Positions 36,291-43,277 of a stretch of DNA of 64,000 bases are shown here, in pieces. Every line of letters starts with the position of its first letter. Position 1 is the stretch's first letter. The notes under the pieces were generated by a model. The model saw only the letters and a list, made by a program, of their open reading frames with translations, made no database searches and was not told where the DNA came from. Both the position numbers and the translations under genes were made by a program. Origin of the DNA: an uncultured Candidatus Peribacteria bacterium (GTDB lineage: Bacteria > Patescibacteriota > Gracilibacteria > GCA-2401425 > JAJOLG01); assembly GCA_964456745.1 (NCBI GenBank), contig CAYWBW010000005.1:12749-76748 (forward strand), in the 5' to 3' direction.

Positions 36291-38300
36291 TTAATCAAGC
36301 TCAAACTCATCTTTCCAATCCCCTTTGTCACCAAACTTAGGCTGCTTGTCTTTATACAAAATAAAATCTTCAACTACCAATATATCCATTTCAGTTCTCA
36401 TAAAACAACGATAACTATCTTCTGGTGAGCAAACAATTGGCTCCCCTCTCACATTAAAACTAGTATTTACAACTACTCAGCATCAGGTCAAATCTTCAAA
36501 TGCCTTTATAAGAGAGTAATATCTAGGATTTGTTTCTTTGTGAACAGTTTGAATTCTAGCAGAGTAATCAACATGTGTAATTGAAGGAATTTCACTTCGA
36601 ATAATATTAAGCTTTTCAATTCAGAACAATTTTTCTTCTTCTTCAGACATCTTAATCCTCTTTGATTCTTCTACAGGAGCAACTAGTAACATATAAGGAC
36701 TCGCAGCATCAATGTCAAAATAATCAGAAACTCTTTCATATAAAACACTTGGAGCAAATGGCCTAAAGGATTCTCTGTATTTGATCTTTAAATTCATTTT
36801 AAGCTGCATATCTTTATTTCGAGGATCTCAGATAATACTTCGAGCTCAAAGTGCTCTCGGTCAAAATTCTGAGCGTCATTGATGCCATCCTATTATGTTT
36901 CACTCGTCTAATAATTTAGCAACTTTTTTGTAAAGACTTTCTTTCTTTTCTATCTTTTCATAAACTGCTTTACTTGAATCAAGATATTGTTTTACCTGAT
37001 CGTTTGAATAGGAAGGTCATAGGTAGGATCATTGCATATGATCTTGGATCATAGTATCATGCATTTCATCTTTCAATGAATTTTTAATTTTTAATTTTCA
37101 ATTTAATAATTTTAAATTTTCAAGTTGATTATTTTTGTCTAAATCAATTGTTGAGTTTGATTTATTTATATTTCTATTATTTCACAATTCTCAATAATAA
37201 TATGCTAAAGCAGCTCAAAGTGCTCATCCTGCATCTCATGAAGCGGGTTGAATCCACATGTTTTCAAAAATCTTTTCTTTAAGAATTTTTCAATTTGCAA
37301 CACAATTGAGTGCGACTCATCAGGCTAAGCATAAATTCTTAGATCATGTAATCTTCTTTGCATGTTTAGCAAGAAGTAATACAATATTTTCAGTAATAAC
37401 TTGAAGAGAAGCTGCAATGTCCATATCTTTTTGAATCAAATCTGTTTCTGGAGTTCTTATTTTTTTATCAAAAAGTTTTTCAAATTTTCAATTTACCATT
37501 GTGAGTCACACAGTGTAATTAAAATAATCCATGTTCATTCTAAAACTTCAATCTTCTTTTATATCAATTAAATTATCTTTAATTAAATCTACATATCTAG
37601 GTTCTCAATAAGGCGCGAGTCACATGACTTTATATTCTCAGCTATTAACTTTAAATCATAAAAAGTAAGTAAAAGCAGAATATAAAAGTCATAAAGAATG
37701 TGGAAAATGAATTTCTTTAAGCATTTTTAAATCATTTCACTTTCAATGTGACAGGCTAGTAGTAGTCCATTCCCCCACTCCATCTAAAGCTAAAATAGCT
37801 GCATCATTAAATGGCGATGGGTAAAAAGCACTTGCGGCATGGGATTGATGGTGATGTGCAAATTTTAGTTTTCTTGATATCTTATTTCTTTGTTGTTTTA
37901 ATTTTCAATTTTCATTTTTCAGTTTTCAATTTTCAATTGGATTGTTATTTTCAAATTTAATAAATTCATCGATAAGAAGTTTCTTTAAAAATAACTTTTC
38001 CTTAAGCCAAATCGGAACAGCTGATAAAAAAAACTTAAATCAAAAAGGGGCTTCTGATAAAAAGGTTTCTAAAAGCCTTTCAAACTTTATGAAAGGCTTT
38101 TCATAGTACACAATTGCTTCAATGTCACTTAATTTTATTCAGGCTTCTTTAAAAGCGTAATTTATTGCATTTACGGGGAAACTACTATCATGTTTTTTTC
38201 TTGAAAATCTTTCTTCTTGAGCAGCTGCTAGAATATCTCAGTCCTTGATTAAGACTGCGGCTGAGTCGTGATAGAAGCATGATAGTCATAATATGAACAT
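36291..38300 (-). CDS. carbamoyltransferase (NodU/CmcH family)
   Basis: 669 aa. Motifs: ILGLSCFYHDSAAVLIKDG, HHHQSHAASAFYPSPF, GVGEWTTTS, LAGGVALNCVANG, QPASGDAGGALGAA, KYRESFRPFAPSV (track ORF 36621.. is in frame) and VNTSFNVRGEPIV. It contains two low-complexity insertions. Confidence 0.92.
37081..37126 (-). repeat. in-frame NGKL-type A/T-rich insertion module (copy in carbamoyltransferase, site 2)
   Basis: The minus strand reads ...ctt gaa aat tta aaa tta tta aat tga aaa tta aaa att aaa aat..., which is LENLKLLNGKLKIKN. It contains the 12-mer AATTGAAAATTA. Confidence 0.6.
37896..37940 (-). repeat. in-frame NGKL-type A/T-rich insertion module (copy in carbamoyltransferase, site 1)
   Basis: The minus strand reads cca att gaa aat tga aaa ctg aaa aat gaa aat tga aaa tta aaa, which is PIENGKLKNENGKLK. 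Confidence 0.6.
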
Positions 38301-38339
38301 ATAACTTGTATTATTTTAATTTTAATATATAATATAAGT

Positions 38340-38411
38340 ATTAAGGATTTATCCTTTTAATCGAAACTTTTTGTTTCACTTCCCTGGTCTTTCATTAGAC
38401 TGGGGGGTTTT
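38340..38411 (+). ncRNA. candidate cis-antisense sRNA overlapping the 3' end of PemK/MazF-like gene A
   Basis: On the plus strand: TTGTAT (38306-11), a 16-nt spacer, TATAAT (38328-33). Then hairpin AAGGAT-tt-ATCCTT (38343-56), hairpin GAAAC-ttttt-GTTTC (38363-77), and hairpin CCCTGGTCT-ttcatt-AGACTGGGG (38382-38405) followed by GGTTTT. The same layout occurs at 60384-60496. Confidence 0.35.
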
Positions 38412-42025: not shown

Positions 42026-42092
42026 TTTTAATAAAAATTAGTTTATAATCTTAGATTAATTTACTATTATAATTTTGAAATACAAATTTTTT

Positions 42093-43277
42093 ATGCAAAA
42101 TATTAACATTATTCAATTTTTACCTTATTTCCCACCCCATAAATGATGACTTGAATCTCACGCTCAAGAATGGTCTAGTTGGTGGACTCAAAAATGATAT
42201 TGAAATGTATTAAATGTTACATTCTCAGTATGACAAGGAGATAATTGAAAATTAGAGACTAGAAATTGAAAATTACTCATAATTCCTGCTTTTGATCTTA
42301 TCCCCAATTTCCCATTTCCAAAATTTTGGAAAAAGGAATTTTGGAAAATTTTAAAAGAAGCAAAAAATTTTTCCAAAGCTTGAAAATTAGAAACTGAAAA
42401 TTTAACAAACTGCATTGTAATTACTAGAACACGATTTTTCCTATCTAGCTTAATATGATGACTCTTCTCAAAAAGAAACGATATCAAATGGGTGCACATT
42501 GAACACTGATCTGATTTCGTTAAATTAAATGCGAAGTGGAAAAATCTAATAGCCTATATATATGATATATTGATTTGAAAATGGATATTTAAATATGCAA
42601 ATATACTTATTTGAGTAAGCAATGCTTGCAAAATATTTATAAAAAAAGAATTTATTAATAAAGATGTAAATGTAATGTATCGATGAATAGAAAAATTAAT
42701 TGAATTAAAAAATGCAAAGCTTGAATTAAGAATTAAATTTAAAAATAAAATAATTATATGATTCGTATGAAGGCTATATAAATGGAAAAATGTAAATAAT
42801 CTCATTAGAGCTTACTATTTATTAGATATTAATATTAAAAATAAAATACAAATTGTAATCATATGAGAGTGAGAGGACTTAAAACAACTTCAATGAATAG
42901 ATAAAAATAATGAAATATATTTTAGCTGATGACAAACATTTAAAAATGCTATAAAATTACAAAATCAATTTGATATTCATGTTCACAGCTCAGCTCCTTG
43001 AGGAGGTCTAGCAACAACTTTATTGCAAGCTATGTGATTATGATGTTTAATAGTTGCAACGCCATACGAATGAGCCAATGAAGTAATTAAAAATAACTAT
43101 AACTGAATTTTGTTAAAAGATTGCAGCATTGTTGAATTAAAAAAATGAATAGAATTATGAATTAATAACCTACAAAAGAAAATGATATGGTGAAAAATTA
43201 ATAAAAAATATATTGAAGAAAAATTTAATTGGTGTAATAATATAGAAAAATATTACTATCTATTTAATAAAAAATAA
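42093..43277 (+). CDS. GT4-family glycosyltransferase
   Basis: 394 aa. Motifs: FLPYFPPHKGGLESHAQEW and HSSAPGGGLATTLLQAMGLGCLIVATPYEGANEVI. It contains two NGKL-type insertions. Confidence 0.85.
42233..42265 (+). repeat. in-frame NGKL-type A/T-rich insertion module (GT4, site 1)
   Basis: aat tga aaa tta gag act aga aat tga aaa tta, which is NGKLETRNGKL. The 12-mer AATTGAAAATTA occurs twice. Confidence 0.6.
42379..42404 (+). repeat. in-frame NGKL-type A/T-rich insertion module (GT4, site 2, partial)
   Basis: gct tga aaa tta gaa act gaa aat tta, which is AGKLETENL. It is near-identical to the first half of the copy at 42233. Confidence 0.5.

Follow-up and report, generated by a model that had tools for sequence, protein, structure and literature searches.

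Why should one 12-base sequence, read each time as Asn-Gly-Lys-Leu with TGA encoding the glycine, recur in two unrelated enzymes of the same bacterium? The question is raised by a 64,000-base window (C5:12749-76748) of the 1.92-Mb draft genome (G000; 46 contigs, 27.5% G+C) of a Candidatus Peribacteria bacterium, in which a carbamoyltransferase and a GT4-type glycosyltransferase each contain two segments of this kind. An earlier note on the window had interpreted the 12-mer as a module inserted in frame and resembling a Rickettsia palindromic element (RPE). The analysis described here indicates that the 12-mer is probably a fragment of a dispersed heptanucleotide simple-sequence repeat (SSR), (GAAAATT)n, which would grow from proto-repeats and is translated from the sense strand under a genetic code that reads TGA as glycine (code 25). 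The genes and sites concerned are as follows.

36291-38300, minus strand: carbamoyltransferase gene, 669 aa, with two arrays (Pfam Carbam_trans_N, 1.7e-102; Carbam_trans_C, 7.6e-73).
37896-37938 (C5:50644-50686), minus strand: carbamoyltransferase array 1, residues 122-135, read as IENGKLKNENGKLK (scan score 34).
37079-37126, minus strand: carbamoyltransferase array 2, whose units are degenerate, translated as LENLKLLNGKLKIKN (37079-37104, C5:49827-49852, has a scan score of 20).
42093-43277, plus strand: GT4 glycosyltransferase gene, 394 aa, with two sites (Pfam Glycos_transf_1, 2.4e-25).
42240-42278, plus strand: GT4 site 1, read as DNGKLETRNGKLL (located from the sequence).
42380-42402 (C5:55128-55150), plus strand: GT4 site 2, TTGAAAATTAGAAACTGAAAATT, read as GKLETEN (scan score 14).

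The window contains four exact copies of the 12-mer, AATTGAAAATTA, divided between the carbamoyltransferase gene (37092-37103 and 37899-37910, minus strand) and the GT4 gene (42243-42254 and 42264-42275, plus strand); shuffled sequences give an expectation of 0.61 copies, and 4 copies were reached in 1 of 100 shuffles. Counting and translation under table 25 confirmed that all four are read as N-G(TGA)-K-L, and the four peptides quoted previously are present, PIENGKLKNENGKLKQQ and LENLKLLNGKLKIKN in the carbamoyltransferase and DNGKLETRNGKLL and AGKLETENL in GT4; the coordinates formerly given for DNGKLETRNGKLL, 42233-42265, should read 42240-42278. The proposal of one constant codon phase is correct for exact copies within the window but not for the near-copies at 37085-37096 and 37927-37938, which by frame arithmetic fall in other phases, nor for the genome as a whole, where the frames of the 27 exact copies are mixed (13 in the NGKL phase, 4 as IENY, 1 as ELKI, 3 antisense, and 6-7 in no open reading frame). 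A genome-wide excess of the bare 12-mer does exist but is modest (27 copies versus the 13-17 expected from Markov models), and many single NGKL copies occur within ordinary conserved sequence. At the protein level, the peptide ENGKLK is found 9 times in G000 versus 0.1 expected. The 12-mer is 1.7 units of the tandem repeat (GAAAATT)n, and it is the underlying 7-base periodicity, not the bare 12-mer, that carries the real signal.

An ungapped scan of G000, evaluated at score levels of at least 14, 19, and 25 and complemented by Tandem Repeats Finder (TRF), detected 58 (GAAAATT)n arrays, of which 47 lie in the sense orientation within genes, 3 are antisense, and 8 are intergenic; the 12-mer module is accordingly replaced as the unit by a 7-base tandem repeat present at ∼58 places in the genome. 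Arrays comprise 2-8 units (14-56 bases), their lengths vary continuously, and the TRF output and the scans together show perfect arrays reaching 3-4.6 units and degenerate ones extending to 8. Of the 17 perfect period-7 arrays that reach 3 or more copies, 9 have the unit AAAATTG, which also tops the high-scoring short-period repeats in the TRF output. Codon usage favors such a sequence: the repeat unit has six different codons, five of which (AAA, AAT, TGA, ATT, and GAA) fall within the six most used in this genome, with TGA ranking third. When codons were shuffled within genes as a null model, however, the 47 sense arrays of the real genes at the lowest score level compared with ∼13, the 17 at the middle level with ∼0.2, and the 10 at the highest level with none. 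As the shuffles yield almost no strong arrays, codon bias fails to explain them.

The flanks of the 23 best arrays are unrelated, with no conserved flank, terminal repeat, common core, or defined ends; array boundaries are simply the points where the 7-base periodicity fades. Among the strong arrays of G000, none was seen in a frameshifted host gene. The two window enzymes appear to be ordinary hosts rather than a special pair. Three arrays are clustered within 5.3 kb, which, given 58 arrays in 1.92 Mb, is by estimate not clearly beyond chance, so no link with glycan genes is claimed. The array also has a promoter-like look (TTGAAA, 17 bases, GAAAAT), but this reading, which came from the sequence only, was dropped because arrays beside genes in relatives have mixed orientations.

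As 7 is coprime to 3, (GAAAATT)n encodes one and the same cyclic heptapeptide, ENGKLKI, in whichever of the three sense frames it is read. Each of these frames meets TGA once per 21 bases, and an array is therefore readable in the sense direction only where TGA is a sense codon, as in code 25; the antisense frames encode NFQFSIF and are free of stops. In G000, TGA makes up 79% of glycine codons. Translation with table 25 places 36 in-frame TGA glycine codons in the carbamoyltransferase and 29 in GT4, and TGA is found at conserved glycines of these intact enzymes, e.g., in GDAGG and GGVALN.

The repeat is widespread beyond this genome. Among 201 genomes sampled from the class, 19 have a perfect (GAAAATT)3 array, as do 21 of 301 sampled from the phylum; a control with the reversed pattern is much rarer, and (GAAAATT)4 occurs in at least 120 stretches across many phyla and groups (Bacteroidota, Cyanobacteria, Acidobacteriota, Gammaproteobacteria, Clostridia, and many candidate phyla radiation [CPR] lineages) at up to 68% G+C. 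For comparison, 72 regions around (GAAAATT)n arrays in other genomes were retrieved. Where aligned genes had almost no in-frame TGA (TGA versus GGN counts of 1 versus 510, 3 versus 482, and 7 versus 447), the code was taken as standard. In such standard-code genomes, the arrays are located outside genes in most of the 68 cases of one set and in 12 of 20 cases of another, and 9 of 10 intragenic arrays are antisense, read as NFQFSIF (L016, L021, L183, L187, L188, L190, L191, L193, and L195). The single sense copy within a gene among the standard-code genomes examined (L043) has TCA in place of TGA and reads KIENSKLKIEN. Genomes that use code 25, in contrast, carry the array in the sense orientation inside genes, as in the GT4 orthologue of G031, in G179, and in the relative that encodes P0003; a metagenome-assembled genome of the Absconditabacterales (L053) has a sense array inside MltG, read as LDNGKLKIENGKLKTLEGFLYPDTY. 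This comparison shows that the strand of intragenic arrays depends on the genetic code, and it upholds the earlier suggestion that the repeat depends on recoded TGA, in that standard-code genomes keep it off the sense strand of genes. Whether the reassignment itself was the cause is more evenly balanced: there is about an even chance that the change of TGA to glycine lifted a three-frame stop barrier, flipped the permitted strand, and let (GAAAATT)n colonize dozens of loops of essential enzymes as (ENGKLKI)n.

Outside genes, the arrays of standard-code genomes often begin in a stop codon or fill operon spacers, and they often form inverted pairs. The latter consist of (AATTTTC)n, a spacer of 25-50 bases that is unrelated between loci, and (GAAAATT)n, making long A/T hairpins between genes (L030:1340-1445, L039:1305-1402, L052:1283-1385, L011:1286-1363, and, in a member of the Thermoanaerobaculia with 68% G+C, L070). 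The arrays that fill operon spacers exactly (L041:1304-1335 and 2754-2789, in a ribosomal protein operon of G013, and L002) begin at the stop codon (..AAATAA|TTTTCAATTTTC..) and end immediately ahead of the following start, e.g., upstream of rpsC and rpsQ.

Most array hosts in G000 are unrelated, single-copy, and mostly essential housekeeping enzymes. Pfam matches identify TruB, MnmA (two genes), a TilS-Maf fusion, PurF, isoleucyl-tRNA synthetase (IleRS), and dihydropteroate synthase (DHPS), PDB matches identify Dxr and AroE, and several large surface proteins are also among the hosts. AroE has exactly 7 extra residues ahead of its GAGGA strand relative to orthologues from the same order, Dxr has ∼7-11 extra residues, and the array of TruB lies in a loop of variable length. 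The only strong antisense array in G000 is that of FolP (DHPS; C12:19046-19081), which is read as SNFQFQVSSFQF (array peptide NFQFQVSSFQF) directly before the conserved ..LDT.. strand; its opposite strand would give NENGKLETGNGKLL, nearly identical to the peptide of GT4 site 1. Another gene, C35:1969-3363, has two near-perfect arrays ∼600 bases apart; its 459-aa product contains a PP-loop-like motif (VPVGGGKDS) and the motif CxxCxKC and has no Pfam match at an E value of 1e-5 or below.

The PDB homologues of the window carbamoyltransferase (NovN-type, GdmN, and TobZ) align with gaps at both array sites, and the closest database relative is only 73-76% identical, which makes it unlikely that the same species is represented. 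Array 1 consists of the six units ATTGAAA, ATTGAAA, ACTGAAA, AATGAAA, ATTGAAA, and ATTAAAA and lies in a variable region. Six units, 2-3 of them variant, are likewise found at this place in the closest relative (76% identity; W stands for TGA in its database sequence), and the array is absent from P0004 and the proteobacterial homologues (alignment A1). Array 2 falls within an insertion of ∼36 aa that in alignment A1 is found only in the window protein. At this site the closest relative has only a 12-base seed, GAAAATTGAAAA (ENGK), so that one member of a 76%-identical pair carries a 1.7-unit seed and the other an expanded array. In the AlphaFold2 (AF2) model of the protein (mean predicted local distance difference test [pLDDT] score, 77.4), array 1 is a loop between helices 105-118 and 133-144 with a block pLDDT of 54 and a bridge, E123-K126, spanning the ENGK turn; at array 2, pLDDT is below 50 over residues 380-417.

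The GT4 protein, which has orthologues in Gracilibacteria and Absconditabacteria, presents two dissimilar cases. At site 1, a pair of perfect ATTGAAA units spaced 21 bases apart encloses two decayed ones, and the site overlies a conserved beta-hairpin in which the orthologues are equal in length (..GQxEG(V/I)xEYxxNGY(K/R)V..) and have an equivalent turn (..E-x-(N/D)-G-Y-(K/R)-V..); the orthologue from G031 carries a perfect (GAAAATT)4 in the same position. At site 2 there are 11 extra residues in a linker, the closest orthologues being 11 residues shorter, and other orthologues carry unrelated inserts of ∼4-14 aa at this point. The AF2 model (mean pLDDT, 89.4) shows site 1 as a hairpin (strands 54-56 and 59-64, turn R57-N58) and site 2 as a coil (97-106) between helix 81-96 and strand 107-112, with a block pLDDT of 74-77. 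The GT4 encoded beside the carbamoyltransferase of the relative (L174) was considered as the orthologue of the window GT4 and turned out to be a different GT4.

The idea of in-frame insertion is thus sound at three sites, the two of the carbamoyltransferase and site 2 of GT4, where there are extra residues and variable linkers, but not at GT4 site 1, whose orthologues carry equivalent residues in a hairpin of equal length, an outcome set beforehand as telling against insertion. The placement in loops divides in the same way: three of the four sites lie in variable loops, and the alignments put the fourth, GT4 site 1, in the conserved hairpin. Mapped onto the AF2 models overall, array sites lie in loops, a hairpin, or low-confidence stretches. 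The earlier note is borne out in that the segments, which are of low complexity, are specific to the lineage and occur in frame in unrelated enzymes.

These observations suggest a scheme in which arrays would start from proto-repeats, namely the common turn E-N-G-K written in the favored codons GAA AAT TGA AAA, which amount to 1.7 perfect units, and would grow by replication slippage or template switching. Of the resulting changes, only those that are in frame on balance, often 7 residues (3 units) in size, would survive selection, and only in surface loops and domain linkers, where a short hydrophilic turn or hairpin is tolerated. Judging from the sequences, whole-unit steps and seeds, such as the GAAAATTGAAAA of the relative at carbamoyltransferase site 2 and the 7 residues of AroE, count in favor of such growth.

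Several points weigh against the interpretation as a slippage-grown repeat translated under code 25. Both members of the 76%-identical pair have six units in carbamoyltransferase array 1, and interrupted arrays of this sort are therefore not visibly unstable. A slip of one unit shifts the frame of the gene, so growth in essential genes needs three-unit steps or some other route. Slippage alone does not account for the recurrence of this unit, in the form of AT-rich islands and inverted pairs, in phyla that are distant and rich in G+C. There is no insertion at GT4 site 1, and some of the “arrays” may represent an existing ENG-K hairpin converging on favored codons. Finally, the genetic code of the relatives was called from few genes per genome.

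The best surviving of the alternatives, albeit an improbable one, is selection on the proteins, for instance on ENGKLKI as a binding or hairpin motif common to the hosts, with the periodicity of the DNA following from codon bias. It gains from the AF2 models, which place the ENGK bridge and a hairpin at two sites, from the way GT4 site 1 stands in for a conserved hairpin of equal length, and from the ENGK sequence itself, a classic type I' turn as in the trpzip2 peptide. However, codon-shuffled genes hardly ever give such arrays, the repeat is also found untranslated between genes and antisense as NFQFSIF (in FolP and in nine standard-code genes), and the sites are non-homologous loops with low model confidence.

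Even less probable is phase variation, in which the arrays would be contingency loci and one-unit slippage would switch the carbamoyltransferase and GT4, as surface-glycan enzymes, off and on. The resemblance to contingency loci lies in a unit that is not a multiple of three placed inside reading frames and in two hosts that modify glycans, as both window hosts do. The difference lies in the hosts at large, most of which are single-copy housekeeping enzymes (TruB, Dxr, MnmA, TilS, IleRS, PurF, AroE, and DHPS are among the hosts), for which the off state would be lethal, and in arrays that are short and interrupted. Perfect arrays of 4-5 units are present elsewhere in G000, but all four window sites are interrupted, GT4 having at most two perfect units and the carbamoyltransferase six imperfect ones. 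The lack of frameshifted hosts among the strong arrays and the retention of six units at site 1 in the 76%-identical orthologue also argue against switching.

A small mobile module of ∼12-40 bases, similar to RPEs or miniature inverted-repeat transposable elements (MITEs) and copying itself into genes in frame, is very unlikely. RPEs are palindromic, ∼100-150 bases long, and constitute a sequence family with defined ends. The arrays share with them repeated DNA that is in frame in unrelated housekeeping genes and tolerated in surface regions, as extra residues in every window site except GT4 site 1, and the recurrence of identical peptide-coding DNA in unrelated genes, the lineage-specific extra residues at three of the four window sites, and the frequency of inverted, potentially hairpin-forming pairs in standard-code relatives would all suit such a module. 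The proposed resemblance nevertheless fails: the arrays are direct 7-base repeats of 14-56 bases in a continuous range of lengths, not palindromes; their ends are set by decay of the periodicity, with no shared flanks, terminal repeats, or common core; and the spacers of the inverted pairs differ between loci. Least credible is chance, by which the 12-mer would be no more than a string of the codons used most in an AT-rich genome with code 25. Five of the six top codons do occur in the unit, and the bare 12-mer is only about twofold over the Markov expectation, but 17 strong sense arrays face ∼0.2 in codon shuffles, perfect arrays of 4-5 units exist, and arrays of this unit are also found in genomes of 40-68% G+C; chance is refuted for the arrays and still holds for many of the isolated NGKL copies in ordinary conserved sequence.

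The slippage-grown, code-dependent repeat preferred here belongs to a recognized type. Similar repeats, the cyanobacterial STRR heptamers, were reportedly described by Mazel in 1990. According to the summary given in PMC4679880, the long simple-sequence repeats of prokaryotes most often have heptanucleotide units (Mrazek, Guo and Shah 2007). Like these heptanucleotide SSRs, the arrays consist of head-to-tail 7-base units, form many dispersed short arrays, and have a patchy distribution across phyla; the standard-code copies are mostly intergenic, and slippage has been proposed as the origin. G000 has the tandem 7-base units, the excess over composition, and the dispersal without shared flanks. 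It departs from the type in that the arrays are not mainly intergenic (50 of 58 are within genes), in that 81% are intragenic, sense, and translated, which is possible only because TGA encodes glycine, and in the AT-rich unit GAAAATT.

A parallel in logic is provided by the TAACTGA direct repeats found in marine Beggiatoaceae, in cyanobacteria, and in Bacteroidetes (MacGregor 2015, PMC4679880). Their forward orientation has stops in every frame, and for this reason they are found in intergenic regions, often just upstream of starts, or reversed in ORFs; the unit is shared by distant phyla without an evident transfer mechanism, and a role in translational regulation has been proposed (PMC4679880). 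The two repeats are alike in being heptamers with forward stops, in following a rule of strand and location, and in occurring in distant phyla, but the unit is different and no code change lifts the barrier for TAACTGA. A search of one literature library returned no paper that contains the (GAAAATT)n sequence in a bacterial context and none that ties heptanucleotide tandem repeats to Patescibacteria or code 25; a paper on “hypervariation” in Gracilibacteria was discarded as a precedent, as it concerns an unrelated 9-base PTD repeat. The type of repeat is known, and what is new is its sense-strand translation in many essential genes, enabled by the reading of TGA as glycine.

The puzzle of a module shared by two enzymes thereby gives way to a genome-wide rule and a natural experiment on codon reassignment: with TGA as a stop, the same repeat is barred from the sense strand of genes, and with TGA as glycine, it becomes part of many essential proteins. 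If true, this would be a direct, countable case in which a change in the genetic code redirected how proteins gain sequence. It bears on how a change of code affects the supply, through mutation, of new protein sequence and on the growth of loops and linkers in conserved enzymes, and it does not point to a new molecular machine.

There are also consequences for the annotation of candidate-phyla genomes, in which the wrong code makes such arrays look like clusters of stops or pseudogenes and code 4 puts Trp in place of glycine. Public protein sets render these code-25 proteins with TGA as Trp (P0003, P0004, and many of the GT4 matches), and the mistranslated copies have Trp at conserved glycines, as in KTENWKLKIEN, with the apparent identity reduced by ∼7%.

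The boundary between the codes seems to run within a single GTDB order, separating G002 and G003, which belong to the same order, from G000 and G001, which belong to the same family (loci L175-L178). In G002 and G003 (29-35% G+C), the genes for IleRS, AroE, and TruB are without in-frame TGA, and the IleRS proteins are 62-64% identical; an IleRS fragment from G001 contains 18 TGA codons in 246 residues. The IleRS of G000, encoded outside the window (C10:42905-46588), is a 1226-aa protein in which a complete histidine-phosphatase domain (Pfam His_Phos_1, 5.9e-33, residues 557-720) is set inside the synthetase, and the IleRS proteins of G002 and G003 are similar in length (1240-1250 aa).

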